Source: an uncultured Eubacteriales bacterium
Lineage (GTDB): Bacteria > Bacillota > Clostridia > Lachnospirales > CAZQDT01
Direction of reading: 5' to 3'
Assembly: GCA_964638835.1 (NCBI GenBank)
Contig: CAZWZB010000002.1
Location: 19,785 to 83,784 of the forward strand
DNA: 64,000 bases
Under the pieces are notes generated by a model. The model saw only the letters and a program-made list of their open reading frames with translations. It was not told the origin of the DNA and did not search any database. Numbering within the stretch: the first letter of the stretch is position 1; every line of letters begins with the position of its first letter. Of the stretch, positions 3,709 to 63,808 are shown one piece after another. The position numbers and the translations under genes are program-made.

Positions 3709-4848
3709 ATGAGTCATGAACAACTTGATAAACAAATATTAAAATATTTATTTTATGCAACAGGATTTATACTTTTTATAATATACTTTAGCTCAATTAT
3801 GAATATAGTTACATTGTTATTTAGTATTACATTTCCTTTAATTTTAGGTTTTGTTATTGCTTATATATTGAATATAATTATAACTAAGGTTGAAAAAGTT
3901 TATTTTCCAAAATCAAGGAACAAAATTATAAATCAAACAAAAAAAATAATGGTGTTTCTTCTATCTATTATTATAATATTACTTACCTTAATTGCTATTA
4001 TAAATATTGTTTTACCTGAAATATTTAAAACTTTTTCTACAATAACATCTAGTTTGCCTGAATTTATTGATAATATCAATAAATTGATTATTAAGTATGA
4101 AAATTATTTTCCTGCTATTGCAGAACAAATATGGTCACTTGATATAGATTGGAGCAGTATAGGTAAAAATATTGCTGATTATGCTTCAAAAGGTATTAGT
4201 AGCTTATTTAATTCTTCATTTACGATTGTTTCTAGTATAACGGGAGGTATATTTGACTTTGTAATGGCATTTGCTTTTGCAATTTACTTAGTTTTTGGTA
4301 AAGAAAGATTAATAGGTCAACTTAAATGTTTGCAAAAGGCTTATATGAAAAAATCTTGGATAGATAAATTTAATATGGTTTTGTCATTAGCTAATGAATC
4401 ATTTTCAAATTATATAATAGGACAGGTTACAGAAGCTGTTATATTGGGAACGCTCTGTAGTCTTGGCATGTGGATATTAAGATTTCCTTATGCTCTTACA
4501 ATTGGTGTATTTGTTGGTATTACAGCTTTAATACCTATTGTAGGTGCATATTTAGGTGCAGGTGTTGGTGTATTTCTTATTTTGATGATTGACCCAATAA
4601 AAGCTTTATTTTTTCTTATATTTATTTTAATACTTCAACAACTTGAAAATAATTTAATTTATCCAAGAGTAGTTGGTACATCAATTGGACTTCCGGGTAT
4701 GTGGGTGCTTGCAGCAGTTGTTGTTGGAGGAGGTTTATTTGGAGTTATTGGTATGATAATTGGTGTTCCATTTGCAGCAACAGTTTATAAATTAATACAA
4801 ATAGATGTAAGAAAAAGATTAAATTATAAAAAGAAAAGATTTAACTAA
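3709..4848 (+). CDS. AI-2E family transporter (PerM/YhhT-like permease)
   Basis: 379-aa polytopic membrane protein. The C-terminal conserved block 'LQQLENNLIYPRVVGTSIGLPGMWVLAAVVVGG' is typical of the family. Confidence 0.8.
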   Translation: MSHEQLDKQILKYLFYATGFILFIIYFSSIMNIVTLLFSITFPLILGFVIAYILNIIITKVEKVYFPKSRNKIINQTKKIMVFLLSIIIILLTLIAIINIVLPEIFKTFSTITSSLPEFIDNINKLIIKYENYFPAIAEQIWSLDIDWSSIGKNIADYASKGISSLFNSSFTIVSSITGGIFDFVMAFAFAIYLVFGKERLIGQLKCLQKAYMKKSWIDKFNMVLSLANESFSNYIIGQVTEAVILGTLCSLGMWILRFPYALTIGVFVGITALIPIVGAYLGAGVGVFLILMIDPIKALFFLIFILILQQLENNLIYPRVVGTSIGLPGMWVLAAVVVGGGLFGVIGMIIGVPFAATVYKLIQIDVRKRLNYKKKRFN

Positions 4849-7266: not shown

Positions 7267-7319
7267 GGAATATAAAATGAGTTCGATAAAATTAACTTAT
7301 CGAACTCATTTTATATTCC
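7267..7319 (+). terminator. Long hairpin terminator after spmB
   Basis: 23-bp stem GGAATATAAAATGAGTTCGATAA/TTATCGAACTCATTTTATATTCC followed by ATTTATATTTT. Confidence 0.65.
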
Positions 7320-7326
7320 ATTTATA

Positions 7327-7608
7327 TTTTGAAATATTTTAGAAATTCGTCAAAATATTTTATTTTATTTACAATTCTATCTTAACCCTGTAATTTTCAA
7401 GCTCTAAAAGCATTCATTACTTTCACACTATTTTTTAAGTATAAATGCTCTCATGTTTAATTATTTATTTATAATCTGCGAATCCATTGTAAAACCAATA
7501 AAAATAACATCAACGAAAAAATATTAAGAGGCAAAATCTCTTTACACTTTTGCAAAAGTGTAAAGAGATTTTAAATTTAATTTTATAAAATCTATCTTTA
7601 TAAACACT
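7327..7608. repeat. Dispersed ~280-nt intergenic repeat, copy A
   Basis: Aligns by eye with 17421-17697 and 56688-56963. Shared blocks: TTCGTCAA..TTTTATTTTATTT, AACCCTGTAATTTTCAAGCT, TTACACTATTTTTTAAGTATA, CTGCGAAT.CATTGTAAAA.CAATAAAAATAA, and the terminal hairpin AAAATCTCTTTACACTT..AAGTGTAAAGAGATTTT (7533-7572). Confidence 0.85.
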
Positions 7609-7741
7609 AAATAATATTTTAAATGAATTATGTTATTTTTTTTTATATGATTTTTAAATTTGGATATAGTAAATTGATTAGATTTGAGTTAAAATATATT
7701 AAAGAATATATAATAAATAATCTAAATTGGAGTGAATTTTA

Positions 7742-11389: not shown

Positions 11390-11518
11390 ATGTTAGAAAA
11401 ATTAGCATGGAATACATTTGAAAGTACAGGAAGTATAGAAGCATATATAATTTATAAAGAATTAGAAGAAGTATTAACTATAGATATAGAAAAAGATGAA
11501 TTTTTATCAGAAAGTTGA
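11390..11518 (+). CDS. YqzL-family small protein (42 aa)
   Basis: Not in the ORF track because it is under 60 aa. ATG at 11390 follows a TAGGGGG RBS. 'MLEKLAWNTFESTGSIEAYIIYKELEE...'. It occupies the conserved era-yqzL-recO position seen in Firmicutes. Confidence 0.6.
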   Translation: MLEKLAWNTFESTGSIEAYIIYKELEEVLTIDIEKDEFLSES

Positions 11519-11523
11519 ATTGT

Positions 11524-12273
11524 ATGAGTATAATAAAATTAAGAGGATTAGTATTAAGAGAAGCAAATTCAAAAGATATAGATAAAATTATAACTGTTCT
11601 AACTAAAGAAAAAGGTAAAAAAACAATGAGTGCAAAAGGAGCAAGAAGACCTAAAAGTTCACTTATAGCAGGAACTCAGCAATTTGCATATTGTGATTTT
11701 TATATATATGATGGAAATATAGCTAATATAAATCAAATAGAATTAATTGAGAGTTTTCATAATATAAGAAATGATATAATTAAACTTTCATATGCAACTT
11801 ATTTTATGGAATTAATTGAAAATACAGTTTTAGAAGGAGAATCATCGGAAGAATTATTAAAGTTCACACTAAAAGCATTACAAATTTTAAATAAAACAGA
11901 ATACGACCAAAAACTTCTATCTAAAATATATGAACTAAAATTAATGCAATTAATTGGATATATGCCAGAAACAACTATGTGTGTTAATTGTGGTAACTCA
12001 ATTGAAGATAATATATATTTTAGTGCAGAAGTCTGTGGCATATTATGTAGTAAGTGTAAAGAACTTAATAATAATATTATAAAAATTTCTCATGGTTCTT
12101 TAAGTGCTATACAATATATATTGTCTGCTGACTTATCTAATATTTTTAATTTTTCTGTATCAGAACAAGTATTAAATGAATTATCTAAAATAACAAAAGC
12201 TTATATTTCCATACATATAGAACATAAATTTAAATCACTAGATTTTTTAAAAAAATTAACGAATTTAAATTAG
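11524..12273 (+). CDS. recO: DNA repair protein RecO
   Basis: N-terminal OB-fold 'IIKLRGLVLRE' and the zinc motif 'CVNCG...CSKC'. I moved the start to the ATG at 11524. Synteny with era supports the call. Confidence 0.85.
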   Translation: MSIIKLRGLVLREANSKDIDKIITVLTKEKGKKTMSAKGARRPKSSLIAGTQQFAYCDFYIYDGNIANINQIELIESFHNIRNDIIKLSYATYFMELIENTVLEGESSEELLKFTLKALQILNKTEYDQKLLSKIYELKLMQLIGYMPETTMCVNCGNSIEDNIYFSAEVCGILCSKCKELNNNIIKISHGSLSAIQYILSADLSNIFNFSVSEQVLNELSKITKAYISIHIEHKFKSLDFLKKLTNLN

Positions 12274-12307
12274 TAAGATAAATAAAAATAATGCTAATTA
12301 AATGAGA

Positions 12308-12352
12308 ATGAAAGTAGGGGCGACCGTAGGTCGCCCCTACTTTCATTTGTTT
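12308..12352 (+). terminator. recO terminator, a GC-rich 18-bp palindrome
   Basis: ATGAAAGTAGGGGCGACC-gta-GGTCGCCCCTACTTTCAT followed by TTGTTTT. Confidence 0.8.
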
Positions 12353-14812: not shown

Positions 14813-17115
14813 ACATTATCTCCCATATGTTTAACTATATTAGTTGGTTTGAAAAATTTTAACCTTAATGCATTTAATACAACGCATATTGAACTTAAAC
14901 TCATTGCCGCTGCACCATACATTGGGCTAAGTTTCCAACCAAGTAATGTAAAAAATACACCTGATGCAAGAGGAATACCTATACTATTATAAAAAAATGC
15001 CCAAAATAAATTTTGCTTTATATTTCTCATAGTTACATGGCTTAATTGAATAAAGTCAACAGCATCTATAAGAGTACTTTTCATAAGCACAACATCTGCT
15101 GATTCAATTGCAATATCTGTTCCAGCACCAATAGCAATCCCTACATCAGCTCTTACTAAAGCTGGAGCATCATTGATGCCATCTCCAATCATTGCAACAC
15201 GTTTTCCGTTTTGTTGAAGCTTTTGAATCTCGCTTTCTTTATCTTGTGGTAAAACTTCTGCTACAACTCTATCTATAGGTAATTCTTTTTTGATTGCTTC
15301 TGCTGTTTTTAAATTATCACCTGTAAGCATAATAACTTCGCATCCAATTTTTTTAAATAATTTAATTGCTTCATAACTAGATGGTTTTATAACATCAGCT
15401 ACTGCAATAACACCAAGTAAATTTTCTCTATCTGCAAAATATAATGGTGTTTTTCCATTTTCAGCAAATTCATTTGCTATAGCTTGTAATTTAGATACAT
15501 CAATATTTTTTTCAATCATCATTGCTAAATTACCTGCTATATATTGTTTTTCATCAATTATAGCTTCAATACCTCTACCAGAGATAGCTTTAAATTTATT
15601 GATATCTTTTAATAATATTTGTTCATTTTTAGCTTTTTGTACAATAGCTTCAGATAAAGGATGTTCTGATGGTTTTTCAATAGATGCAGCAACTTCTAAA
15701 AGTTGTATTTCAGATATACCTTCTACTGGTATTATATTTGTAACTACTGGTTTACCTTCAGTAATTGTACCTGTTTTGTCAAGCACAATCGTATTTACAC
15801 TATGTGCTATTTCAAGAGCTTCTGCTGATTTTATAAGAATTCCATTTGTTGCACCTTTACCAGTTCCCACCATAATAGCTACAGGAGTTGCAAGTCCTAA
15901 TGCACAAGGGCAAGAAATAACAAGAACTGCTATACCAATTGAAAGTGCAAATTCAAATGATTGACCTACTAATAACCAAGTGATAGTTGATATTATAGCA
16001 ATAACAATTACAATAGGTACAAAAACACCACTAATTTTATCTGCAAGTTTAGAAATAGGTGCTTTTGAAGCATTAGCATTTTCAATTAATTGTATAATTT
16101 GTGCTAGTGTTGTATCATTTCCAACGCATTGAGCTTTAAATTCAAAAAACCCTGTTTTATTTACTGTAGCAGCAATAACTTTATCTCCAACTTGCTTTTC
16201 AACAGGTATACTCTCACCTGTAAGCATTGATTGGTCAATAGAAGAACTTCCTTTTGTAATAACTCCATCTACTGGTATACGTTGTCCCGGTCTAACTATT
16301 ACTATATCACCAATATTAACTTCTTCAATAGGAATTTCTATTTCTTGCCCATCTCTTAAAATAGTTGCAACTTTTGGAGCTAAATCCATTAACTTTGTGA
16401 TGGCTTCTGAAGTTTTTCCTTTAGCTCGTATTTCTAAAAATTTTCCTAAGGTAATAAGTGTTAAAATGGTAGCTGCTGATTCAAAATATAAATCCATTAC
16501 ATATTTCATGACAATGTCCATATTATTTGTTCCTAAACCATAGCCAATTTTATAAATAGCAAAAATTCCATAAATTAATGCAGCAGATGAACCAATCGCT
16601 ATTAATGAGTCCATATTAGGAGATTTTTGAAAGAATGCTTTAAATCCAACTTTAAAATATTTTCTATTTACATATACAATTGGTAATGTTAAAAGAAATT
16701 GAGTGAATGAAAAAGTTATTGTATTATGCATTCCATGAAGCCAACTTGGTAACGGAAATTCCCACATATGTCCCATTGATATATAAAGTAGAGGAATTAA
16801 AAAAATAAAAGAGATAATTAGTCTTTTCTTCATTTCTTTTATTTCTTGTATCATAGGATTTTCAGTATTCGTAGTTTTAGTTTTTATAGATGGATTAGAA
16901 GCATTTTCATGTAATGAAGCACCATATCCTAGATTAGTTACAAATTTAATAATTGTTTCTATATCAATTATTTTAGGTTCATACTCAATCATCATACTAT
17001 TTGTTAATAAATTTACTGTTACATTTAAAACCCCTTCTTTTTTTCCTATCACTTTTTCAATCCTTGCAGAACAAGCAGAACAAGTCATGCCAGTTATATT
17101 AAATTTTTGTTTCAT
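14809..17115 (-). CDS. copA: Copper-translocating P1B-type ATPase
   Basis: N-terminal HMA motif '[12 protein letters not shown]', TM6 'CPC' motif, 'DKTGTIT', 'HP' motif and 'GDGINDAP'. Confidence 0.95.
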
Positions 17116-17135
17116 AATATCACCTCTTAATATTA

Positions 17136-17162
17136 ATACCTACACCCCTGAGGGAGTGTTAT
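17136..17162 (-). promoter_or_regulatory. Candidate CsoR operator upstream of copA
   Basis: ATACCTACACCCCTGAGGGAGTGTTAT is a GC-cored pseudo-palindrome (CCC-ctga-GGG) 20-45 nt upstream of the copA start. It resembles C/G-tract CsoR operators. Confidence 0.4.
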
Positions 17163-17290
17163 TAGTATATAAAAAAAATTACTTTCTGTCAAGTGATTAA
17201 TAATTAAATTTTAAGAGTGGTTATTTAAAGATATATAAAAAAATATTTGAGGGTGTTTACTATAGAATGATTCAAAAATAATTGTAGAGA

Positions 17291-17352
17291 AATGTAGGGG
17301 CGACCTGCGGTCGCCCTGTTTTTTTTAGGACGTTTTCGCACACCCCTACATT
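17291..17352 (+). repeat. Second copy of the GC-rich palindrome, with its right arm displaced
   Basis: AATGTAGGGGCGACC-tgc-GGTCGCCC, then TGTTTTTTTTAGGACGTTTTCGCACA, then CCCCTACATT. It shares the core TAGGGGCGACC...GGTCGCCC with 12308-12346. Confidence 0.75.
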
Positions 17353-17420
17353 CAATAATAATTTAAATTTACTTTTTATATTAAATTATAAAAATATTAT
17401 TCTTTACTTAACACTCTCAA

Positions 17421-17697
17421 ATATTTTTAAATATTCTTAAAACTTCGTCAAATAATTTTATTTTATTTATATTCTTTGGTTAACCCTGTAATTTTCAAGC
17501 TTTAAAATCACCTATTCCTTTTACACTATTTTTTAATATACATTTTAATTCCTTATTTAAGAACTGCGAATTACTTGTAAAATCAATAAAAATAAAATAA
17601 TATTTGAGTTCAAAATCTCTTTACACTTGCGTTGCAAGTGTAAAGAGATTTTGAACGTAATTTTATAAAAACCTATCTACATGTAATCACTCTCAAA
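17421..17697. repeat. Dispersed ~280-nt intergenic repeat, copy B
   Basis: See copy A. The hairpin at 17611-17653 plus the following 25 nt (68 nt in all) are identical to copy C. Confidence 0.85.
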
Positions 17698-17788
17698 ATT
17701 TTTGAAATATCTATATTTTTGTGTTATAATTATATTAAGTCAAATCATCTTAATAAAAATGTAATTGTAAAATAGGAGTGATTATAAA

Positions 17789-17989
17789 ATGAAAAAAATA
17801 CAATATATAAAAATGTGGGCAATTAGTTTAATTATAATATCTTTGATATCAATTATTATTGCATTATGCAACATGATGGGAATAACTATTACTGATGTAA
17901 TTATTAGAATTTTAGGCTGCATTGAGATTATTTCCCTACCATTTTTCGTATTTAGTTCTGTAAAAGTATTATCTATAAAAAAGAAATAA
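17789..17989 (+). CDS. Small two-TM membrane protein (hypothetical)
   Basis: 66 aa, AGGAGTG RBS, two hydrophobic helices, followed by a terminator at 18001-18028. Confidence 0.4.
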   Translation: MKKIQYIKMWAISLIIISLISIIIALCNMMGITITDVIIRILGCIEIISLPFFVFSSVKVLSIKKK

Positions 17990-20958: not shown

Positions 20959-20973
20959 TAAAATAAAATTCAA

Positions 20974-21010
20974 ATTTCGCACTTCATTTTGGAGTGCGAA
21001 ATTCATTTTT
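20974..21010 (+). terminator. Terminator after the ATPase gene (CGCACT...AGTGCG hairpin family)
   Basis: ATTTCGCACT-tcattttgg-AGTGCGAAAT followed by TCATTTTT. Confidence 0.7.
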
Positions 21011-21061
21011 ATTTAAATTAATAAATCCAAGAGTAAATTAATAAAAAATATCTAAAAAACA

Positions 21062-21098
21062 GTTACACTTTTTGAAAAAGTGTAACTGAAAATTGAAG
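21062..21098 (+). other. Hairpin + AAAATTGAA motif (H1), left of the terD array
   Basis: GTTACACTTTTT-g-AAAAAGTGTAAC followed by TGAAAATTGAAG. Related to 25407-25444 and 25508-25546. Confidence 0.7.
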
Positions 21099-21193
21099 CT
21101 ATGGATAATAAATTATTTTATATATATGATTGACAATTAATTTGAATTATATGAATAGAGTTGCACTTTTTTTAATAGAATTGCATATGTTAC

Positions 21194-21221
21194 TTGTTTT
21201 TTTATTTTACATTCTTATAAT
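21194..21221 (+). promoter_or_regulatory. Promoter of terD copy 1
   Basis: TTGTTT (21194-21199), 16-nt spacer, TATAAT (21216-21221). Homologous to the promoters of copies 2 and 3. Confidence 0.5.
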
Positions 21222-21299
21222 AAAATTTATAGTAACTAAAATTTTTAATAATAAAATATTTTTAAAAATTAATTCAAATAATGAAGGGAGAAATTTAAA

Positions 21300-21881
21300 A
21301 TGGCTGTTAATTTAAAAAAGGGGCAGAAAGTAGATTTAACAAAAACAAATCCGGGTTTAACTAAATTAATTGTTGGATTAGGTTGGGACTTAAACAAATA
21401 TGATGGTGGTTTTGATTTCGATTTAGATGTTTCGGTTTTTTTATTATCTGAAACAGGTAAAGTTTTAAGCGATAGTGATTTTATATTTTATAATAACAAA
21501 AAGCACCCAAGTGATTCTGTTATTTATCATGGTGATGATTTAACAGGTGAAGGTGATGGTGATGATGAAATAGTGACTGTTGATTTATCAAAAGTACCTC
21601 CTAATATTTCAAAAATAAGTTTTACTGTTACAATTAATGAAGCTGACACTAGAAAACAAAACTTTGGTATGGTTTCTAATGCTTATATTCATGTATTAAA
21701 TGAAGATAAAAAAGAAGAACTTATAACATATGATTTAGATGAAGATTTTTCAATAGAAACAGCAGTTATTATTGCTGAATTATATAGAAATGGCTCCGAA
21801 TGGAAGTTTAATGCTATAGGTAGTGGTTTTGAAGGTGGTTTGGCTGCTCTTTGTAATAATTTTGGTATATCAACTAATTAG
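21300..21881 (+). CDS. TerD-domain stress protein, paralogue 1
   Basis: '[12 protein letters not shown]', 'GLGWD', 'DFDLD', '[13 protein letters not shown]', '[11 protein letters not shown]'. Confidence 0.9.
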
Positions 21882-21925
21882 TTATATACTTAAAATTTAA
21901 TATTTTTAAACAATATATATATTAC

Positions 21926-21953
21926 TTGTATTTTTATTTTAAAATGATATAAT
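21926..21953 (+). promoter_or_regulatory. Promoter of terD copy 2
   Basis: TTGTAT (21926-21931), 16-nt spacer, extended -10 TGATATAAT (TATAAT at 21948-21953). Confidence 0.55.
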
Positions 21954-21993
21954 AAAATTGTAATAATTAAATTTATTCAAAGGAGAGATACAA

Positions 21994-22575
21994 ATGGCTA
22001 TTAGCTTACAAAAAGGACAAAAAGTAGATTTAACAAAAACAAATCCGGGTTTAACTAAATTAACTATTGGTTTAGGCTGGGATATAAATAAATATGATGG
22101 TGGTTTTGATTTCGATTTAGATGCTTCTGTTTTTTTATTATCTGAAACAGGCAAAGTTTCAAGTGAAGCTGATTTTGTATTTTATAATAATAAAGAACAT
22201 TTAAGTGGTTCTGTTATTTATCAAGGAGATAATTTAACAGGTTTAGGCGATGGTGATGATGAGGTTGTTAATGTTGACTTATCAAAAGTACCTGCTAACA
22301 TTTCAAAAATAAATTTTACAGTTACAATTAATGAAGCTAATACTAGAAAACAAAATTTTGGTATGGTTTCTAATGCTTATATTCGTGTTGTAGATGAAAC
22401 TAAAAATGAAGAACTTATACGTTATGATTTAGGTGAAGATTTTTCAATAGAAACAGCAGTTATTATTGCTGAATTATATAGAAATGGTTCTGAATGGAAA
22501 TTTAATGCTATAGGTAGTGGTTTTGAGGGTGGTTTAGCTGCTCTTTGTAACAATTTTGGTATATCAACTAATTAA
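21994..22575 (+). CDS. TerD-domain stress protein, paralogue 2
   Basis: Same hallmarks as paralogue 1. The last 46 residues are identical to paralogue 1, although the DNA differs at synonymous sites. Confidence 0.9.
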
Positions 22576-22592
22576 TATAAATTAATTATATA

Positions 22593-22624
22593 TTGCTTGT
22601 TTTTTTACCTTAAAATGATATAAT
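22593..22624 (+). promoter_or_regulatory. Promoter of terD copy 3
   Basis: TTGCTTGTTT region plus extended -10 TGATATAAT (TATAAT at 22619-22624). The -35 spacing is ambiguous. Confidence 0.45.
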
Positions 22625-22667
22625 AAAGTTGTAATAACTAAACTTATTTTATAAAGGAGAAATACAA

Positions 22668-23246
22668 ATGGCTATTAGTTTACAAAAAGGACAAAAAGTA
22701 GATTTAACAAAAACAAATCCTGGACTAGCTAAATTAATTATTGGTTTAGGCTGGGATACAAATAAATATGATGGTGGCTTTGATTTTGACTTAGATGCAG
22801 CAGCTTTTTTACTTGGTGAAAATACTAAAGTTTCAACTGAAGCTGATTTTATATTTTATAATAATAAAGAACATTCAAGTGCTTCTGTTATTCATCAAGG
22901 AGATAACTTAACAGGTTTAGGTGATGGTGACGATGAAATAATATTAATTGATTTATCAAAAGTACCTGCAAATATTCATAAAATAGACTTTACTGTAACA
23001 ATTCATGAAGCTGATTCTAGAAAACAAAATTTTGGTATGATTTCTAATGCTTATATTCGTGTTATAGATGAAGCAAAAAACGAAGAACTTTTACGCTATG
23101 ATTTAGGTGAAGATTTTTCTGTAGAAACAGCAGTTGTTGTTGGGGAATTATATAGAAATGGCTCTGAGTGGAAATTTAATGCTATAGGTAGTGGTTTTCA
23201 AGGTGGCTTAGCAGCTCTTTGTAATAATTTTGGTATTCAAATTTAA
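22668..23246 (+). CDS. TerD-domain stress protein, paralogue 3
   Basis: '[12 protein letters not shown]', 'DFDLD', '[13 protein letters not shown]', '[11 protein letters not shown]'. Confidence 0.9.
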
Positions 23247-23256
23247 TAATCTTTTT

Positions 23257-23285
23257 AAGGAACGCTATTAGCGTTCCTTATCTAT
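23257..23285 (+). terminator. Weak hairpin after terD copy 3
   Basis: AAGGAACGC-tatta-GCGTTCCTT. The T-run is poor. Confidence 0.4.
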
Positions 23286-23343
23286 TTAACATAATATAAG
23301 TAAAATTTTGGAAGTTTGATTAAATTTATGAGGTGGGTATTTT

Positions 23344-24030
23344 ATGAGTTACGAAATATTATACGAAGGTGCATTTCCTATTATTAAATATAATTTACAA
23401 AAAGGAGAACAATTAAAAGCAGAATCTGATGCAATGGTTGCTATGTCAGGTACACTTGATGTAACAGGTGGAGTTGAGGGTGGATTTCTTCGTGGACTAA
23501 CTCGAATGTTATCAGGTGAAAATTTTTTCTTTCAATATATTACAGCATCACGTGGTAATGGTGAAGTTTTGTTAGCTCATGCATTACCTGGTGGTATATT
23601 AGATATAGAACTTGATGGCAGCTATGGTTTAAATATTCAAAAAGATGGTTTTTTAGCTGCTACTTCCGGTATTGAAATTGATACTAAAATGCAAAATTTA
23701 ATGCAAGGTATATTTTCAAGAGAAGGTCTTTTTATATTAAAAGCTTCTGGAAAAGGAACAATATTTGTTAGTAGCTATGGAGCAATACACCCTATTAATT
23801 TAGAACAGGGTGAAGAATTTATTGTTGATAATGGGCATTTAGTTGCTTGGGCTGACTATATGGAGTATAAAATAGAAAAAGCGTCTAATGGTTGGATATC
23901 AAGTTTTATGTCAGGAGAATGTTTAGTTTGTAGATTTAGAGGACCTGGTGTTGTATTAATACAAACAAGGAATCCAAATGGACTTAAAGGTTGGTTAATG
24001 AAATTAGGTTTTTCTTTAAATAATAAATAA
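23344..24030 (+). CDS. AIM24 / TIGR00266 (DUF124) family protein
   Basis: 'LQKGEQLKAESDAMVAMSG..', 'SGENFFFQ', 'GEVLLAHALPGGI', 'FLAATSGIE', 'GLFILKASGKGTIFVSSYGAI', 'VDNGHLVAW'. The repetitive beta-rich pattern is typical of AIM24. It is a recurrent partner of TerD clusters. Confidence 0.8.
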   Translation: MSYEILYEGAFPIIKYNLQKGEQLKAESDAMVAMSGTLDVTGGVEGGFLRGLTRMLSGENFFFQYITASRGNGEVLLAHALPGGILDIELDGSYGLNIQKDGFLAATSGIEIDTKMQNLMQGIFSREGLFILKASGKGTIFVSSYGAIHPINLEQGEEFIVDNGHLVAWADYMEYKIEKASNGWISSFMSGECLVCRFRGPGVVLIQTRNPNGLKGWLMKLGFSLNNK

Positions 24031-24044
24031 TTAAGGAGTTTTTT

Positions 24045-24668
24045 ATGTCAGTAAATTTACAAAAAGGACAAAAAGTGGACTTAACAAAAGGAAATTCAAG
24101 TTTAAAAAATTTAATAATTGGACTAGGGTGGAATAACAATAAAGAAACAAATAGCCAAAAAAAAGGTTTTTTTGCTTCAGTTTTTTCATCTGATAATTAT
24201 GATTTTGACTGTGATTCATCTGTATTTTTATGTGATACTAATGGTAAAATAGCTAATAATGAAGATATAATTTATTTTGGTAGATTAAAACATTCAACAG
24301 GTTGCGTACAACATATGGGTGATAATTTAACTGGTTCAGATAGCAATAATACTAAAGATGATGAACAAATCCATATTAAATTACTTGAAGTGCCACAAAA
24401 CTATAGTAAACTTGTTTTTGTAGCTAATATATATAATGCTATCAAAAGAAAACAAGATTTTGGAATGATTAGTAGTGCATTTATTAGGATAGTTGATGGT
24501 GATACTAATAAAGAACTTTGTAGATATAATTTAACTGAAAGCTATGCCGGAAAAATAGCAATGATTTTTGGTGAGGTATATCGACATAATAATGAATGGA
24601 AATTTCAAGCAATAGGTGAAGGAACAAGTGATGAGAGTGTGTCTGATATGGCAAAAAGATATAAATAA
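24045..24668 (+). CDS. Divergent TerD-domain protein, paralogue 4
   Basis: '[12 protein letters not shown]', 'GLGWN', 'DFDCD', 'GDNLTGSDSNNTKDDE', 'EWKFQAIGEG'. It has an extra ~20-aa insert after GLGWN and a degenerate acidic loop. Confidence 0.8.
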   Translation: MSVNLQKGQKVDLTKGNSSLKNLIIGLGWNNNKETNSQKKGFFASVFSSDNYDFDCDSSVFLCDTNGKIANNEDIIYFGRLKHSTGCVQHMGDNLTGSDSNNTKDDEQIHIKLLEVPQNYSKLVFVANIYNAIKRKQDFGMISSAFIRIVDGDTNKELCRYNLTESYAGKIAMIFGEVYRHNNEWKFQAIGEGTSDESVSDMAKRYK

Positions 24669-24793
24669 AATTAATATTTAGAAATAACTTTGGTAAGATA
24701 ATTACTTATTATGAATAATATAAAGTTGAAATTTTGTACAAACTCTATTTATACATTTTTTTACTTTATTAAATATACAAATAGGAGGAATTA

Positions 24794-25381
24794 ATGATGG
24801 GTGTAAATTTATCAAAAGGACAAAGAGTAAGTTTAGATAAGTCAATGAAAATGGCATTAATAGGTTTAGGTTGGGATACTAACCAGTATGATGGTGGATG
24901 TGATTTCGATTTAGATGCATGTGCCTTTTTAGTTGGTCAAAACGGTAAAGTATCTAATGATGATGATTTTATATTTTATAATAATTTAACTTCAAGAAAT
25001 GAAGCAGTTATTCATACAGGTGATAATTTAACAGGCGAAGGTGAAGGCGATGACGAAATTATTTTAATTAATTTTGAAAAAGTGCCAGCAGATGTACAAA
25101 AAATTGCAATTACTGTTACTATTCATGAAGCAATGACACGTAGACAAAATTTTGGTATGGTTAAAAACGCTTATGTAAGAGTTGCTAAAATGCAAAGTGA
25201 AAATGATACAATTGGTGTTGAAGCGTTACGTTATGATTTAGGTGAAGATTTTTCTGTAGAAACAGCAATCGTTGTTTGTGAAATTTATAAATACGGTAGT
25301 GAATGGAAATTTAGTGCTGTAGGTTCAGGATATCAGGGTGGACTCAGTTCACTATGCCAAAGCTTTGGAGTTAATGTATAA
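24794..25381 (+). CDS. TerD-domain stress protein, paralogue 5
   Basis: '[10 protein letters not shown]', 'GLGWD', 'DFDLD', '[13 protein letters not shown]', '[11 protein letters not shown]'. It has its own AGGAGG RBS. Confidence 0.88.
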
Positions 25382-25444: not shown

Positions 25445-25507
25445 CCTATAAAATCCCAATTAATATGATAAATTCAAGAAAAAATTAATAAAATATATGT
25501 AAAAAAT

Positions 25508-25546
25508 CTTGACACTTTTTTAAAAGTGTCAAGAAAAATTCAAATC
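25508..25546 (+). other. Hairpin + AAAATTCAA motif (H3)
   Basis: CTTGACACTTTTTT-AAAAGTGTCAAG followed by AAAAATTCAAATC, 101 nt after H2. Confidence 0.7.
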
Positions 25547-25597
25547 AACTTAAAAGAATCTAAATTAGATTTGCAAACAAAAGAAAGGAATTCATAT

Positions 25598-26404
25598 ATG
25601 AAAAACAAATTGATGAGTTTAAAAGTAGACTTTGCTTTTAAAGAAATAATGAATGATGAAATAGTGAGAAATAGTTTTATATCTGCTGTATTAAAAATAC
25701 CAATGGAAGATATTAAATCCACACAAATTTTAAATACATATTTGAGAAAAGAACATATAGAAGATAAACAAGGAATATTAGATGTAAGAGTAACTTTAAA
25801 CAATATGGAAATAGATATAGAAATACAAGTTGAACCTTTTAAACATTGGGAAGATAGAACTTTATTTTATACTTCAAAAATGTATATTGAATCGATAGAA
25901 GCAGGAGATAGTTATAATGTATTAAAAAAGATAGTAAATATAAGTATATTGGATTTTAATTTATTAAAAGAAGAAAATTTCCATAATTCATTCCATATAC
26001 GAAATGATGAAAGTCATACAATTTATACAGATAAGATGGAGTGGCATACAATCGAATTACCTAAAATACCAAAAAACACAAATACAATAAATGATTTATT
26101 AGAATTATGGGCAAGTTTTATACAAAACTCTGAAAATGAGGAGGTCGTTCAAGTGTTAGCTAAAAAAAGTGAATATATAGACACTGCATATAATGTGTTG
26201 CAAAAAATATCTACTGATAAAGAAAAAAGAATGGAATATGATGCACGACAAAAAGCAATTTACGACCAGAACACCTTAAAGATACAACATAAAGAGGAAG
26301 GCGGAAAAGAAAAAGCATTAAAATTAGGATTACTTATTGAACAAATTTCTGAAATAACAGAATTAACTATAGAAGAAGTAGAAGCTTTAAAAATAAATAA
26401 CTAA
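25598..26404 (+). mobile_element. Rpn-family recombination-promoting nuclease / putative transposase (PD-(D/E)XK, TIGR01784/YhgA-like)
   Basis: N-terminal 'LKVDFAFKEIMNDE..' and the 'GILDVRV...MEIDIEIQV' D...ExQ/K core. The C-terminal tail is 'ELTIEEVEALK'. I moved the start to the ATG at 25598 (AAAGGAA RBS), because the track GTG at 25526 lies inside hairpin H3. Confidence 0.8.
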
Positions 26405-33989: not shown

Positions 33990-34449
33990 TTAAAATTTGC
34001 AAGTAATAGTTTCATAACTTGCAATAAATATAATACTACAAAATAGATAATTATTCAAGTATTTTATCACACATATTTTTAACAAAAAAATTAATATTGA
34101 TTTATCAAAAATAATAAATTTTCATAAATCAATATTAGAGTGTTTATAGATAGAATAATTTATAATATTCTTTTTAAATCATTTTTATATAACTACGCTC
34201 AATGATTTTTAAAAAATTTTTAACTTTGGAGGGAATTATAATAATTTAATGTAAAAAAAGAAACAGATAAATCTGTTCCCTACAATCAATTTATTATATT
34301 CTTATATAACCACTCTCAAAATTTAAAATGCAATTTCTCGAAACACTTAAAAAAAAGTGTTCGATGTTTTTAAGGAAGTATACACATCATTATTTTAAAC
34401 AATTGAAATTTTATGCTCTTACTATATTTATTAAAGTTGAAAAATATTA

Positions 34450-38655: not shown

Positions 38656-38687
38656 TTGGTTCGCACTTAAAATTAAGTGCGAACCAA
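38656..38687 (-). terminator. Terminator of the TPR-TPR-AAA operon (CGCACTT...AAGTGCG family)
   Basis: TTGGTTCGCACTT-aaaatt-AAGTGCGAACCAA, T-rich downstream on the minus strand. Confidence 0.7.
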
Positions 38688-43153: not shown

Positions 43154-43344
43154 AATAATCGTTCCTCATTTATAAATTTATTTTAATTATATCATATTTT
43201 AATTAAAACTACTATACTAAACGATATCTTAGATAATTAAAAGTGAAAATATTATATACTTAAAAAATTGGAGGGTTTATAAAAAGATAGATTTTGTTAT
43301 AAAATTAATGGTTATATATTAAATCAGATAAAAAATTTAAAATT

Positions 43345-43384
43345 AAAGTTGTGTCGCACTTCGTACGAAGTGCGACACAACTTT
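43345..43384. other. 19-bp perfect hairpin (GTTGTGTCGCACT family) upstream of the TPR operon
   Basis: AAAGTTGTGTCGCACTTCG-ta-CGAAGTGCGACACAACTTT. The same 13-bp stem core recurs at 51008-51047. Confidence 0.8.
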
Positions 43385-43571
43385 AAATTAAAAAATACTA
43401 ATAAAAAATATTTTTTTACTATTATAAAAACTCTCACATTTCAAAATAATTTCTTAATATATGTTTAATTTTAATTAATCACTCTCAAAAAGTTTATTTT
43501 ACTATTGTAATATAGAAAATAATGTTATAAAATATATAAGGTTATATTATAAATTGTAAAGGAGAGTTTTT

Positions 43572-50853: not shown

Positions 50854-51007
50854 TACTAATTATTTTAAATTCATTATCTAAAAGTATTATTAAGTCTTCA
50901 CAAATGATTTTTATATTATTTGAAATATGTTTATTTTACTGTTATAAAATCCTTTAAATCTTTTAAAATTCTGATATAATGTTTATTAAAACTTTTTATT
51001 TTTATTT

Positions 51008-51047
51008 AATGTTGTGTCGCACTCATTAATGAGTGCGACACAACATT
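51008..51047 (+). terminator. 20-bp perfect palindrome after cobA/hemD (GTTGTGTCGCACT family)
   Basis: AATGTTGTGTCGCACTCATT/AATGAGTGCGACACAACATT. Confidence 0.7.
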
Positions 51048-56569: not shown

Positions 56570-56687
56570 GTTTTAACTCCTTTATTTTTATTACTTAAAC
56601 GATTAACTTATATTAAGTTTACTACTCTAGTTTAAATCTGTCAAGAGTAAAATTATTGAGAGTAGTTAATTAAAATAGATAAGAAAG

Positions 56688-56963
56688 TATTTTTTAATAT
56701 TCTAAAAATTCGTCAACTTATTTTATTTTATTTAAAATCTTCACTTAACACTGTAATTTTAAAGTTCTAAGGCTATCCATTCCTTTTACACTATTTTTTA
56801 AGTATAAATTTTAATTATTTATTTAAGCCTGAGAATTCATTGTAAAATCAACAAAAATAAAATACTATCATGAGTCAAAATCTCTTTACACTTGCGTTGC
56901 AAGTGTAAAGAGATTTTGAACGTAATTTTATAAAAACCTATCTTTATAATAATCACTCTCAAA
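56688..56963. repeat. Dispersed ~280-nt intergenic repeat, copy C
   Basis: See copies A and B. Hairpin at 56876-56918. Imperfect inverted ends: AAATTATTGAGAGTAGTTA (56650-56668) versus TAATCACTCTCAAATTATT (56949-56967). Confidence 0.85.
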
Positions 56964-57012
56964 TTATTTCATAGCTAATGAATTGAAAATAATTAAGCAA
57001 CGCATAAAATAA

Positions 57013-59020: not shown

Positions 59021-62000
59021 ATGTATAAGAAATTGTTAAGTATTTTTATTACAATTGTTATGTGTTTGCCTAATTTACCTACAGTTAGCGTATTAGCAAA
59101 TACAGAACAAAGTTGGACCAATGAAGGAACTTATAATACTGAATGGTTCAATGGTAATGGTACTAGTACTGAACCGTATATAATCAGTAATGCTTCTGAT
59201 TTGGCAGGATTATCTGTATTAGTAAACAAAGGAAATGATTTTTCTGGCAAATACATAAGATTAGAAGATGATATAGACTTATCAGGTAAGCAGTGGATGC
59301 CTATAGGTAATTCTAATAACAACTTCAGAGGAATTTTTGATGGAAACAACCACATAATAAAAAATCTCACTATAGGAAGTGAAATAGAAAAAAGTGACAT
59401 TGATTGTGCAGGATTATTTGGTTCTGTAGATAATAGTGAACTTTTAAATATTGGTCTTATAGATTTAGAAATTTTTATTAATGCTGGAAATGTAGGAGGA
59501 CTTGTTGGTGATAATAGTGGAGATATTAAAAACTCATATGCTATAAACACAATAACAGGAACTACAACAGGAGGGCTTGTTGGAAATAATAGTGGTAACA
59601 TATTAAATTCATATGCTATAACTAATATTTCAGGAATTATAACAGGAGGACTTGTTGGAAATAATAGTGGTAATATATTAAATTCATATGCTATAACTAA
59701 TATTTCAGGAACTACTGCTGGTGGATTTGTTGGAAACAATAGTGGTAATATTAAAAACTCATATGCTACTACGAATACTACAAACAACAATGCAAGTGGA
59801 TTTATTAGTAATAATAGTGGTAATATTAAAAATTCATATTGGGATACGGATAAAATATCTACAGGTATATCTACAGGAAATGATAGTGGATTAACTGGAT
59901 TAAATACTAATCAGATGAAAGGTATTGATACAGATAAAACTGATTGGGTTAATATTACTATAGACGAACTTGATAAAGGAGATATTTCTCTTGTTGAAGC
60001 TTTAAATTTAGGATTAGAATCAAAATATTTAGATTGGATGAATGATACTCAAAATACACAACAAGGTTATCCAAAACATTCTAATTTATCTAAAGTGTCA
60101 ATTGAAAGCATTAGCTTAAATGTAACAGAAACACAATTAAGTGTTGGTGAAACTCTAGACTTAGAAGCTATCATCTTACCTTACAATGCTACTAATAAAT
60201 TAATTAACTGGAGTGTAGATACTGAAGGTGTAGTGGATATTGTTTATAACAATTCAAATGATACATATGCAAAAATATCTGCAATACAAGAAGGCACTGC
60301 TATTGTTACAGCAACCACACAAGATAACAATTTAACTGCTTCTTGCAAAATTACAGTTAATTCTGAATTGCAATCTTCTTTTACAGTAACTTATGATTCT
60401 AATGGTGGTATTGGTGATATTCAAAGTGTTCAAGTAAAAGAAAATGCAAAAATTACAATAAAACAAAACTCCTTTGAAAAAGATGGTTATAAATTTATAG
60501 GATGGTTATATGATGGTAAAGTTTATCAACCAAATGAAACTATAGCTGTAAATTCAGATATAACTTTCATTGCTCAATGGGGAATACCAGTAACAAGTAT
60601 AACTTTAGATATAAGAAAAATTCAATTAAATGTTGGTGAAATCTTAAATTTAGAAGCAATTATATCACCTATAAATGCTACTAATACTAATGTTTTATGG
60701 AATGTAAAAGATTCAAGTATTGTAAACATAGTATCTAATAAATTACAAACAACTGTTACTGGAATTTCAGAAGGCACTACTACTATTACAGCTAAAACAG
60801 AAGATGGTAATTTTATAGCTTCTTGTCAAATAACAGTTGTGAAAAATAGTGGTCCTAAAGATAGATATTCTGTTACTTATGAAGGTGATGGCGGTACAGG
60901 AAGTAACTTCCCGGTACAATATTTTAAAACAGGAACCAAAATTAAATTAAAAACAAATCACTTTACAAAACCGGGATATAAATTTGTAGGATGGTTATAT
61001 AATGGCAAAATTTATCAACCTAAAGATGTTTTCACTGTAGAATCTGATACAATTTTTGTGGCTAAGTGGGAAGAACTTACTACTCCAGAAAAACCGGTTG
61101 AAACAAAAGTTAAAGGCGTAAATTTAAGTATAATAAAAGTTGTTTTAGGTATAGGAGAAGAATTAGACTTAGATGCGATTATTTCACCTAATACTGCTGT
61201 TAATAAAAATGTAGTATGGTCTAATAGTAATTCAAGTGTAGTAGATATTGTATATGATACAGTTTCTGATTCTGTATATGGTTCTGTATATAACGCTGTA
61301 TATTCAAAAATAACAGGTCTTTCTGTAGGTACTGCTAAAATTACAGTTACTACTGAAGATGGTGGATTTACTGCTTCTTGTGATGTAGAAGTTGTAAATG
61401 ATTCAAATGGTAATGGAAATGGCAATAGATTTGTAGTATCATATGATGCTAATGGTGGTATTGGAACTGCTCCAAATACTAAACCTTTGAGAGCTGGTAC
61501 TATAATTACAATAAGACCTAATCCATTTATAAAATATGGTTATTATTTTGATAAGTGGTTATACAATAATCAATCTTATCTACCTTTACAACCGTTTGAA
61601 ATAACATCAGATGCTACTTTTACTGCTCAATGGAGTGAAGTTCCACCTGCAAGAGTAGAAGATGTAGAACTAGATTTAGTTGAAATTAGATTAGATGTTA
61701 ATGAAATGATAGAATTAGAAGCAACTATTTATCCTTATTATGCTGCTAATAAAAATGTTTCTTGGTCTTCTAGTAATGATGGTATAGTAAATTTAGTTCC
61801 TAGTAAACAAGGAGTAATAATAACTGGAATGAAAGAAGGTACTACTACAATTACAGTTACAACTGAAGATGGTGGATTTATTGCTTCTTGTGATGTAGTA
61901 GTTGAAAATACACAAGCTGAAGATAAATTTACAGTATCATATGATGGTAATGGTGGTATTGGAACTGTTCCAAATGTTCAAACTTTAAAGAGCGGAACTG

Positions 62001-63808
62001 AAATTACAGTAAAACCTAATCCATTTACAAAAGATGGTTATGTATTTGCAGGATGGTTATATGATAATAAAATTTATCAACCTAACCAAACTATAGTGGT
62101 ACAAAAAGATATAACATTCATTGCTCAATGGCGTGGAGAATTTGATACACCAGTAACAGATGTAAATTTAAGTGTGGCAGAGATTAAATTAAAAGTGGGC
62201 GAAAGTGCAAACTTAGAAGCTATTATTTCTCCTGATAATGCTACAAATAAAACTGTATTCTGGAGTGTAGATGATTCAAACGTTGCAGGTATTGTTTATA
62301 AGGATAATGTATATGTAACTATATCTGCTATTTCAGAAGGTATTACAACAATAATGGTTACAACTGAAGATGGATACCTTACAGCTTCTTGTAACATTAT
62401 AGTTGATAATAATAATGAAGATGATAACTTTACAGTAACTTATGATGCTAATGGTGGTATTGGAGATGCTATTGAAATTGAAAAATTTAAAGATGGAACT
62501 GAAATTACAGTAAAATCAAATCCATTTAGAAAATATGGTTATAGATTTTCAGGATGGTTATATGATGGTAAAATTTATCAACCTAACCAAACTGTAATTA
62601 TAGATAAAAATATAACTTTTGTTGCTCAATGGAAAGTTATTGATGATGAAGGTTCTAATAATGGAAATAATTCAAATTCTAATAATAATGAATCTAAAAA
62701 AGATAAAACTTTATATATTACAATAGGTAGTATAACAATTCCTTATACTATATCTGGTGTTAATATAAAAATTGAAATTAATGATGAACTTTTAGAAAAA
62801 TTATTAGAAAATGCAAAAGAAACTAATACTATTTTAATTGATTTATCAAATATAGATGGTATTAAAAATATTAAGCATATCAGTTTTAAAACTAAAGGTA
62901 AATTATTTAAAGATAATAAAGTAATAGTAAAAGGTATTAGTACTGTAACAGTAGGTTCTAGTATGTTTAAAAATTTAAATTTAGATTCAACTGATATTAT
63001 AGAAATGTCAATAGCAAAGGGAAGTATTTCTGTAGATTTTAAAGTTAATGAAAAAGATATAACAAGTAATAAGCATATAGATTCATTGAAAGTTAACTAT
63101 GAAGTTAATGATATAACAGATAATACTGTAATAGTTAAGCTAGAAGATAATAAACAAACTATAGTACCATTTAGTATAGCTAGTGAAGATGAAATGATAT
63201 TTAAAACAGAATTATTAGGAAGATTTGAAGCAGTGGAAAGAGCATTTAATTTTTCTGATATATCATCACATTGGGGAGAAAAGTATATCAATTTCATGGC
63301 AGCTAGAAACATAGTACATGGAAAAGAAAATAATGTTTTCAAACCAGATGATAATATAACAAGAGCAGAATTTGTAACATTACTTTTTGGGTTCTATGGA
63401 ATAGATGACAAAGAACTTGATAAGTATAAATATACAAGTTTTAAAGACGTTAAAGAAGATGATTGGTTTGCACCATATATAAATTTTGCAGTGCAAAACA
63501 AAATAGCAACTGGAACGGGAGATAATTATTTCTCACCAAATGAACAAATTACAAGGGAACAAATGGCAACAATGCTTTTAAACTTTTCACAAAACAATAG
63601 CTTTGTTATAACAACAAATGGAACTAATAAATCATTTGCAGATAGCAATAATATAAGTTATTGGGCAACAAACGCAGTAAATACTATGCAAAATGCAAAT
63701 ATAATAAGTGGAAGAGCAGATAATATATTTGAACCAAAATCATTGGCAACAAGAGCAGAAGCGTGTTCTATTGTTCAAAGATTTGTAGAAAATATAGTAT
63801 CAAATTAA
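59021..63808 (+). CDS. 1595-aa cell-surface protein: signal peptide, GLUG repeats, 5 x (Big_2 + InlB-B/Listeria-Bacteroides repeat) modules, 3 x SLH
   Basis: Signal peptide 'LSIFITIVMCLPNLPTVSVLA'. 'GGLVGNNSGNI.NSYA' occurs five times. 'L.VGE.L.LEAII.P.NATN..V.W' Big_2 units alternate with 'Y..NGG.G....(K/R).G..I.....F.K.GY.F.GWLY....YQP....V....TF.AQW'. Three canonical SLH modules lie at the C-terminus. Confidence 0.85.
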   Translation: MYKKLLSIFITIVMCLPNLPTVSVLANTEQSWTNEGTYNTEWFNGNGTSTEPYIISNASDLAGLSVLVNKGNDFSGKYIRLEDDIDLSGKQWMPIGNSNNNFRGIFDGNNHIIKNLTIGSEIEKSDIDCAGLFGSVDNSELLNIGLIDLEIFINAGNVGGLVGDNSGDIKNSYAINTITGTTTGGLVGNNSGNILNSYAITNISGIITGGLVGNNSGNILNSYAITNISGTTAGGFVGNNSGNIKNSYATTNTTNNNASGFISNNSGNIKNSYWDTDKISTGISTGNDSGLTGLNTNQMKGIDTDKTDWVNITIDELDKGDISLVEALNLGLESKYLDWMNDTQNTQQGYPKHSNLSKVSIESISLNVTETQLSVGETLDLEAIILPYNATNKLINWSVDTEGVVDIVYNNSNDTYAKISAIQEGTAIVTATTQDNNLTASCKITVNSELQSSFTVTYDSNGGIGDIQSVQVKENAKITIKQNSFEKDGYKFIGWLYDGKVYQPNETIAVNSDITFIAQWGIPVTSITLDIRKIQLNVGEILNLEAIISPINATNTNVLWNVKDSSIVNIVSNKLQTTVTGISEGTTTITAKTEDGNFIASCQITVVKNSGPKDRYSVTYEGDGGTGSNFPVQYFKTGTKIKLKTNHFTKPGYKFVGWLYNGKIYQPKDVFTVESDTIFVAKWEELTTPEKPVETKVKGVNLSIIKVVLGIGEELDLDAIISPNTAVNKNVVWSNSNSSVVDIVYDTVSDSVYGSVYNAVYSKITGLSVGTAKITVTTEDGGFTASCDVEVVNDSNGNGNGNRFVVSYDANGGIGTAPNTKPLRAGTIITIRPNPFIKYGYYFDKWLYNNQSYLPLQPFEITSDATFTAQWSEVPPARVEDVELDLVEIRLDVNEMIELEATIYPYYAANKNVSWSSSNDGIVNLVPSKQGVIITGMKEGTTTITVTTEDGGFIASCDVVVENTQAEDKFTVSYDGNGGIGTVPNVQTLKSGTEITVKPNPFTKDGYVFAGWLYDNKIYQPNQTIVVQKDITFIAQWRGEFDTPVTDVNLSVAEIKLKVGESANLEAIISPDNATNKTVFWSVDDSNVAGIVYKDNVYVTISAISEGITTIMVTTEDGYLTASCNIIVDNNNEDDNFTVTYDANGGIGDAIEIEKFKDGTEITVKSNPFRKYGYRFSGWLYDGKIYQPNQTVIIDKNITFVAQWKVIDDEGSNNGNNSNSNNNESKKDKTLYITIGSITIPYTISGVNIKIEINDELLEKLLENAKETNTILIDLSNIDGIKNIKHISFKTKGKLFKDNKVIVKGISTVTVGSSMFKNLNLDSTDIIEMSIAKGSISVDFKVNEKDITSNKHIDSLKVNYEVNDITDNTVIVKLEDNKQTIVPFSIASEDEMIFKTELLGRFEAVERAFNFSDISSHWGEKYINFMAARNIVHGKENNVFKPDDNITRAEFVTLLFGFYGIDDKELDKYKYTSFKDVKEDDWFAPYINFAVQNKIATGTGDNYFSPNEQITREQMATMLLNFSQNNSFVITTNGTNKSFADSNNISYWATNAVNTMQNANIISGRADNIFEPKSLATRAEACSIVQRFVENIVSN
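59495..59845 (+). repeat. 75-nt tandem coding repeats (GLUG units), about 5 copies
   Basis: Two central units are nearly identical at the DNA level (59566-59715). Confidence 0.85.
60095..62636 (+). repeat. Five tandem ~510-nt coding modules (Big_2 + B-repeat)
   Basis: Periodic recurrence of the 'ATNxxVxW ... TTEDG.F.ASC...V' and 'GWLYDGK.YQPN' blocks. Confidence 0.8.

Follow-up and report, generated by a model that had tools for sequence, protein, structure and literature searches.

The three same-orientation repeats of about 280 bases found in the window (the whole 64-kb stretch of DNA analysed here) are very probably copies of a MITE, a non-coding DNA transposon of ~303-305 bp that is incapable of autonomous movement. 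Prokaryotic MITEs are defined as elements shorter than 500 bp with inverted repeats of 4-30 bp and direct repeats in young copies, and they are known to occupy AT-rich intergenic sites, to form stable stem-loops, to persist as truncated old copies and to insert into one another (PMC10969869). The repeats were assigned to this class because their terminal inverted repeats, target duplications, nested insertion and decayed old copy fit the published definition. Three copies of the element, here termed type-1, were recognised within the 64 kb (A, B and C), together with three related elements (M1, Z and X). At 303-305 nt, type-1 is non-coding and below the 500-bp limit; inverted repeats with the motif TGAGAGTGNTTA facing inward at both ends were present in B, C, M1 and Z; and target duplications accompanied the younger insertions (C, M1 and B), being absent from A and Z and matching at 6/8 positions in X. 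The type-1 family is previously undescribed, although the kind of element that it represents, selfish DNA in the form of a prokaryotic MITE, is already well known.

Copies A, B and C aligned pairwise at 76-86% identity (mean column identity of the three-way alignment 82-86%), and an nhmmer profile built from them recovered its own copies with E values of 1e-78 to 1e-92 and no fourth type-1 copy in the 64-kb window. Alignment and nhmmer thus both confirmed the three same-orientation copies proposed in the initial annotation (A, 7327-7608; B, 17421-17697; C, 56688-56963). The claim that these align along their full length stands as far as the alignment goes, but the coordinates cover the shared core alone; the complete units of C and B, the latter with M1 nested inside it, are those listed in Table 1. 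The full element is bounded by imperfect terminal inverted repeats of ~25-30 nt (TGAGAGTGnTTA... / ...TAAnCACTCTCA) with the end consensus 5'-(T)GAGAGTGnTTA... and ...TAAnCACTCTC(A)-3', and type-1 similarity ceases abruptly at the ends of these repeats. Its target is an AT-rich intergenic site with the consensus AAAWWWTT, duplicated over 8 bp in the complete copies B and C (6 bp if the terminal T/A is assigned to the element). As first proposed, no conserved ORF was detected in type-1: stops occur in every frame, the longest stop-free stretch is 43 aa, and a protein-database search with its translation returned 0 relatives, so no copies emerged via miscalled genes.

Table 1. Positions of type-1 copies, nested and related elements, and associated sites in the 64-kb window
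Feature	Position	Strand	Remarks
Copy A, older truncated type-1 relic	7327-7612	+	76-78% identity to B/C
Copy B, complete type-1 interrupted by M1	17212-17695	+	Own sequence 17212-17248 and 17427-17695
Flanks of copy B	17205-17212 (TAAATTTT); 17695-17702 (AAAATTTT)		7/8 identical; AAATTT 6/6
M1, 170-nt MITE nested in B	17249-17418	+	Same ends, different core
Target duplication of M1 (AAATATTT)	17241-17248; 17419-17426		8/8 identical
Copy C, complete type-1, 305 nt	56657-56961	+	Termini, inverted repeat
Target duplication of C (AAATTATT)	Left 56650-56657; right 56961-56968		8/8 identical
Z, related element, 184 nt	34135-34318		Termini 34135 (+), 34307-34318 (-)
X, related element, ~219 nt	43269-43487	- (opposite orientation)	Right terminus TGAGAGTGATTA, 43476-43487
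Internal perfect hairpin	B 17610-17654; C 56875-56919; A 7533-7572		
TTGACGAA, putative '0A-box / -35-like' site	B 17444-17451; A 7346-7353; C 56709-56716	-	

Copy C is intact; its termini (TGAGAGTAGTTA at 56657 on the + strand and TGAGAGTGATTA at 56950-56961 on the - strand) face inward and its left and right arms form an imperfect inverted repeat of ~25-30 nt, the termini pairing in the predicted fold. The imperfect GAGAGT/ACTCTC repeats noted earlier around C are real, and if they are counted as the ends the element runs from 56658 to 56960 (303 nt). The corresponding termini of copy B lie at 17212 (+, TAAGAGTGGTTA) and 17684-17695 (-), with an outer GAGAGT...ACTCTC pair at 17213-17694; after subtraction of M1 and of one copy of its duplication, B measures 306 nt and matches C over its whole length at 85.8% identity, with a left arm that lies outside the initially annotated coordinates. 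M1 has termini of its own at 17248 (+) and 17408-17419 (-), an inverted repeat of ~25 nt, and a core in which T8 follows a GC-rich hairpin (17297-17325); this hairpin is terminator-like on the + strand and has no + strand gene upstream. Copy C aligns through the point at which M1 is inserted and therefore represents a paralogous empty site for M1. The check for target-site duplications recommended in the initial annotation thus yielded matches of 8/8 for C, 8/8 for M1 and 7/8 for B. Copy A has lost ~45 nt on the left, and with them the inverted repeat on that side; on the right, decay has reduced the terminus to CACT---A, and no target duplication was found around the copy. M1 is accordingly younger than B, and A is the oldest of the insertions.

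Two observations concern the M1 hairpin separately. The terminator hairpin at 12307-12347 (GTAGGGGCGACC..GGTCGCCCCTAC), which follows the gene at 11515-12273, is 92% identical to it over 26 nt. The pair TGTAGGGG / CCCCTACA surrounding it belongs to M1 itself and is not a CsoR operator.

Identification of the elements hinges on the ACTCTCAAA strings, which are the right termini of type-1 and of the related elements. Exact occurrences of CACTCTCAAA numbered five (17412, 17688, 34311, 43480 and 56954), all on the + strand and all intergenic, against ~0.1 expected in the window from base composition. Those at 34311 and 43480 bear out related end strings reported there previously, whereas the string reported near 43432 is a degenerate version (ACTCTCACA). 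With at most one mismatch allowed, the terminus motif TGAGAGTGNTTA was found at 10 sites in the window, every one of them intergenic. Eight of these make up four inward-facing pairs (17212/17695, 17248/17419, 34135/34318 and 56657/56961), and the remaining two (43425-43436 and 43476-43487) are right ends, both left-facing, within X.

The target duplications were compared with chance in two ways. Twenty cross-pairings of flanks between different elements matched at 6/8 positions at best, and for random intergenic 8-mers the probability of an 8/8 match was 4e-4 and that of a match of at least 7/8 was 0.0044. The window and 87 fetched loci, 1.41 Mb in all, were also scanned blindly for GAGAGTG motifs in inverted pairs separated by 80-700 nt and having flanks identical at 7/8 positions or better; exactly three elements, C, M1 and B, were recovered, and no others.

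The related elements Z and X carry TGAGAGTG...CACTCTCA termini as in type-1 and have different cores. Z has an inverted repeat of ~30 nt with an arm similar to that of M1, and a T-run follows its internal hairpin; no target duplication was found at its ends (flanks 3/8). X has arms homologous to those of type-1 around a different core, a perfect palindrome of 44 nt (43343-43386; hairpin -32 kcal/mol). The left end of X is degenerate, its flanks match at 6/8 positions, and its left arm resembles an inverted type-1 right arm (7577-7646 and 17658-17733 against 43233-43308 by BLAST); a second, internal terminus-like string at 43425-43436 indicates that X may be composite. In every element type the shared termini enclose a strong hairpin, which is followed by a T-run in M1, Z and X. 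The presence of one set of termini across families suggests a single mobilising enzyme.

The palindromic core of X also belongs to a second family of perfect palindromes (38656-38687, 43343-43386, 51008-51047 and 20973-21003) with the common arm (G)TTG(T/G)(G/T)TCGCACT. Palindromes X and Y differ in the central 8 nt alone (TCGTACGA vs CATTAATG) and are both still perfect, and TCGCACTT is common to this family and to the Ca-ATPase terminator at 20973. In the region 50921-51047, between hemD/cobA and the next gene, a promoter-like TTGAAA-17-TGTTATAAA precedes palindrome Y by about 60 nt and could be the sign of a small RNA or a leader sequence. Elsewhere, direct repeats of ~80% identity (21013-21090 and 25460-25536) flank a cluster of TerD genes; each is made up of a segment similar to the left arm of type-1 (CAAGAGTAAATTAATAAAAAATATC), a run of A and a ACACTTTT..AAAAGTGT hairpin, and the two may be MITE relics.

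The perfect 20-bp hairpin reported in each type-1 copy proved stable by folding. In B and C it has a stem of 20-23 bp and a 3-nt loop (-33 to -35 kcal/mol, z = -9.6 to -11), and in A it is a perfect 40-nt palindrome (-21 kcal/mol); two compensatory pairs distinguish A from B/C at the apex, and the hairpin was called terminator-like on the + strand in 3/3 copies. An identical run shared by B and C does extend across the hairpin and the sequence beyond, as described in the initial annotation, with a length of 69 nt rather than 68 (17610-17678 = 56875-56943); given 14% overall divergence between B and C, the probability of such a run was calculated as roughly 0.006. The hairpin arms are identical at 35/35 positions in copy A, which is otherwise ~76% identical, and this conservation suggests some constraint beyond selfish spread. 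Situated ~45 nt from the right end, the hairpin would most simply be a terminator-like module; it might also be a remnant of the 3' end of the parent element, or a sequence required for propagation.

Loop-proximal cores of the form CACTT-N6-8-AAGTG were found in eight intergenic hairpins from different repeat families (0.66 expected), at 7544, 17623, 21065, 25512, 34343, 38664, 43357 and 56888, the families being type-1 (A/B/C), X, W, the 21.06-kb and 25.5-kb repeats, and 34343; CACTT stands beside the loop in 9 of the 28 perfect hairpins of the window. Directly after the hairpin of the 25.5-kb repeat comes a 292-aa ORF (25526-26404) matching PF12784, a PD-(D/E)XK nuclease family 'transposase' (Rpn-like), with E = 8e-44. 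It is conceivable, though unlikely, that such hairpins are not passive cargo and that a dedicated hairpin- or palindrome-recognising protein mobilises or maintains them, or that they are transposon-spread bidirectional terminators or insulators co-opted by the host. If this were true, protein-recognised hairpins would constitute a REP/RAYT-like system with a different enzyme in a Clostridial lineage. Interpretation of the hairpin as a fossil of abutted ends (a circle junction) was rejected, since its two TGTAAA motifs are just 13 nt apart.

The window has a G+C content of 25.7% and carries ordinary chromosomal genes. Copy A is located between spmB, which has a terminator hairpin of its own (7267-7319), and ybeY. 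Copy B separates the divergent copA-csoR operon from a 66-aa ORF with Ca-ATPase behind it. Copy C has the terminator of a metallo-beta-lactamase-fold gene on one side and a GH127-like gene on the other, these two genes being encoded on the minus strand. These flanking genes are unrelated, and the orientation of the element relative to its neighbours is inconsistent. Regulatory signals of the neighbours were predicted outside the repeats, including the promoters of copA (TTGACA-17-TATACT, 17192-17164), of the 66-aa ORF/Ca-ATPase (TTGAAA-17-TGnTATAAT, 17702-17730) and of the GH127-like gene (TTGACA-17-TAAACT, 56644-56616), as well as terminators at 7271-7315 and 57034-57013. The composite of B and M1 sits between the -35 boxes of the back-to-back copA and Ca-ATPase-operon promoters, which were originally ~20 bp apart and are now separated by about 510 bp, its insertion having pushed them apart by about 490 bp. 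Any effects on neighbouring genes would be a by-product of the repeat and not the cause of its existence.

Other repetitive regions were recorded in the same window. Downstream of Ca-ATPase, positions 21300-25381 encode five TerD-domain paralogues and an AIM24-family gene; the first three paralogues share 80-93% DNA identity and have repeated upstream regions (21166-21245, 21898-21977 and 22569-22648), and the Ca-ATPase/TerD arrangement is conserved in two related contigs (L084 and L085). A 1595-aa surface protein with Big_2, Listeria-Bacteroides repeat and SLH domains is encoded at 59021-63808, and within its gene lie DNA repeats of ~500 nt (60.1-62.6 kb) as well as a 75-nt tandem array (59494-59868), where Logan contig L086 breaks.

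Besides a MITE-like mobile element, which the inverted repeats, target duplications and nested insertion have upheld, the initial annotation named a family of small structured RNAs as a candidate, with Rfam and covariation analysis as checks. That the repeats are paralogous small-RNA genes, each with a + strand promoter (TCGTCA-17-TAnAAT), a hairpin terminator and an RNA product of ~180 nt, is quite unlikely in light of these analyses. The + strand promoter-like pair is retained in 3/3 copies despite a differing -10 (TACAAT, TATATT and TAAAAT), but the matches are just 9/12, which is common in such AT-rich sequence; likewise, the terminator-like character of the hairpin in every copy is offset by a weak U-tract after the stem (TTTTGAACG). 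Compensatory change is confined to the two pairs at the hairpin apex: consensus folding of both strands revealed no covariation outside the hairpin and an unfavourable covariation term, and the other predicted pairs were invariant or weak A-U/G-U. Searches against Rfam gave 0 matches for the whole window at the gathering threshold, and for positions 17100-17800 at E<=10 only chance hairpin matches far below gathering scores. RNA genes, moreover, are not characterised by inverted repeats, by duplications or by a nested insertion. Small RNAs derived from MITEs are known (PMC10969869), and small-RNA production would at best be a secondary property of this MITE.

The remaining candidate of the initial annotation, a portable promoter/terminator cassette with emphasis on Spo0A, found no support either. 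It would require TTGACGAA to act as a Spo0A box or as an outward -35 for the left-hand gene (copA, GH127-like), which is very improbable. The string given as TTCGTCAA is indeed kept in every copy, at the positions of the TTGACGAA site, it faces the minus-strand gene in B and C, and the organism possesses the sporulation genes spmA/spmB. However, this conservation is by descent; TGNCGAA is a low-information motif with 8 occurrences in the window; and the promoter-like match (TTGACG-16/17-(C/A)AAAAT) reaches 9/12 only, the associated -10, (C/A)AAAAT, being poor, whereas copA and the GH127-like gene have better matches of 11/12 and 10/12 located between the element and the gene, nearer the latter. 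In B, the 170-nt M1 separates TTGACGAA from copA, and the site in copy A is directed into spmB in the antisense sense of that gene. Spo0A-controlled promoters carry the 0A box at the functional promoter of a gene, and judging from the predicted promoters the gene-proximal ones lie elsewhere. Chance, a segmental duplication or a duplicated UTR of one gene family, the last having been named beforehand as an outcome that would count against a mobile element, is extremely improbable: apart from the similarity itself, nothing speaks for it, whereas the flanking genes come from unrelated families, similarity is lost abruptly at the inverted-repeat ends, and orientation relative to the neighbours varies among the copies.

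Several narrower interpretations were also rejected. For a type I toxin, a minus-strand peptide (QRKCKEIL...LFLLILQ) has a loosely kept frame, with both indels being 9 nt, but its start codon lies inside the hairpin, no ribosome-binding site is present and the stop positions differ. The idea that B and C are the att sites of a 39-kb island bounded by them was rejected, as they share only 86% identity and both possess inverted repeats and a duplication of their own. Neither TTTACACT nor the palindrome was accepted as a DnaA-box, CodY, NrdR or CRP-like site, the spacing being wrong or the match only partial.

With the MITE interpretation retained, the shared ends would be bound in trans by a transposase of the DDE type, supplied by an insertion sequence at another place in the genome; this enzyme would cut the target with an 8-bp stagger and insert the element there. 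A loose connection to the IS256 family might be seen in the duplication of 8 bp and in the GAG termini. IS256-family ends begin G(A/G), and 8-bp duplications are also made by the ISL3, IS6 and IS1595 families. Within the IS256 family, ISCth4 of Clostridium thermocellum exemplifies the combination of 8-bp duplications, inverted repeats of ~30 bp and a host among the Clostridia (PMC7780238), all of which are paralleled here: an 8-bp target duplication was found for type-1 and M1, together with ~30-bp inverted repeats in a Clostridial host. Unlike in that family, where a subterminal TGTAAA within each inverted repeat is a hallmark, the right arm of type-1 has TATAAA and the left arm TTAAAA, and GTGTAAA occurs three times inside each full copy, as AGTGTAAA, in the internal hairpin and in two internal blocks. 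Membership of type-1 in the IS256 family is thus unproven. No transposase with matching ends was detected by Pfam among 30 scanned ORFs of the window, including those flanking the repeats; the sole 'transposase'-named Pfam match, the PD-(D/E)XK Rpn-like protein at 25526-26404, has no matching inverted repeats.

Type-1 shares with described prokaryotic MITEs (Correia of Neisseria, ERIC, Chunjie and QMITE1/2) the short, non-coding, inverted-repeat structure, the AT-rich target and the stem-loop, and no sequence similarity to any of these was seen. Correia elements duplicate TA, whereas type-1 duplicates 8 bp of AAAWWWTT. Unlike in these MITEs, the strong hairpin of type-1 lies inside the element, apart from the inverted repeats, and has arms that are better conserved than the repeats. 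Older copies of QMITE2 lose ~40 nt at the 5' end (PMC10969869), a parallel to copy A with its one lost end. SPRITE, a small interspersed repeat of a Firmicute with a terminator-like hairpin, belongs to a class of intergenic repeats that insert into one another (PMC10969869); the position of M1 inside B recalls this pattern, as do the cores resembling terminators in M1, Z and type-1, although such repeats occur in a different host lineage and probably differ from type-1 in sequence. Nor does type-1 resemble REP/RAYT elements, being ~300 nt long with inverted repeats and duplications and having no GTAG head. REP/RAYT hallmarks comprise palindromes of 20-40 nt, a conserved GTAG head and a Y1 (RAYT) transposase gene; no Y1 (RAYT) transposase was detected among the window ORFs scanned with Pfam.

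As far as seen, the family is lineage-restricted within the collections searched (species genomes, viral contigs, metagenomes, plasmids and phages). The hairpin pattern CTCTTTACACTT-N4-10-AAGTGTAAAGAG had 0 matches in 185,579 species genomes, 0 in viral contigs and a single one in metagenomes, a GC-rich hisF/hisA palindrome on contig L082. This palindrome (3880-3930, GGGGTCAACTCTTTACACTTGACAGGTGTCAAGTGTAAAGAGTTGACCCC) contains the 12-nt arm core of the type-1 hairpin and again ACACTT..AAGTGT; as a type-1 copy it was rejected, being unrelated and GC-rich, and was judged a chance match. BLAST searches of plasmids and phages revealed no relatives of the core, the inverted repeats, M1, X or Z (chance AT-rich matches in Staphylococcus recombinase genes or nothing). 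The best relatives of CopA in a genome scan showed only 69-72% identity, as would fit a gene that moves horizontally, and none of them carried the type-1 element. The nearest Ca-ATPase relatives, on L084 and L085 (42 kb in total), showed ~82-83% identity and a different synteny; neither contig contained the element, paired termini with a target duplication, or an orthologous empty site. Isolated terminus motifs with one mismatch occurred in these relatives at chance level, L085 having four on the same strand.

Exact look-ups of flanking proteins, aimed at empty-site strains, returned short Logan contigs of the same organism only. One of these (L001) stops 30 nt after 17246, a position 2 nt before the M1 terminus, as a k=31 assembler would do if a further occurrence of the M1 arm were followed by other sequence; the break hints at further M1-arm copies outside the window. 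Other Logan contigs break inside the 69-nt run of B/C (L083 and L086) or inside the palindrome of A (L087), and since the known repeats explain these breaks, they are uninformative on copy number.

Taken as a MITE family, these repeats account for long intergenic regions and repeat-induced assembly breaks in a poorly sampled, AT-rich, Clostridium-like lineage. The results supply exact element boundaries, a target preference for AAAWWWTT and the relative timing of insertions, and the shared termini around different cores, along with the unusually conserved hairpin, offer a route to the mobilising transposase.
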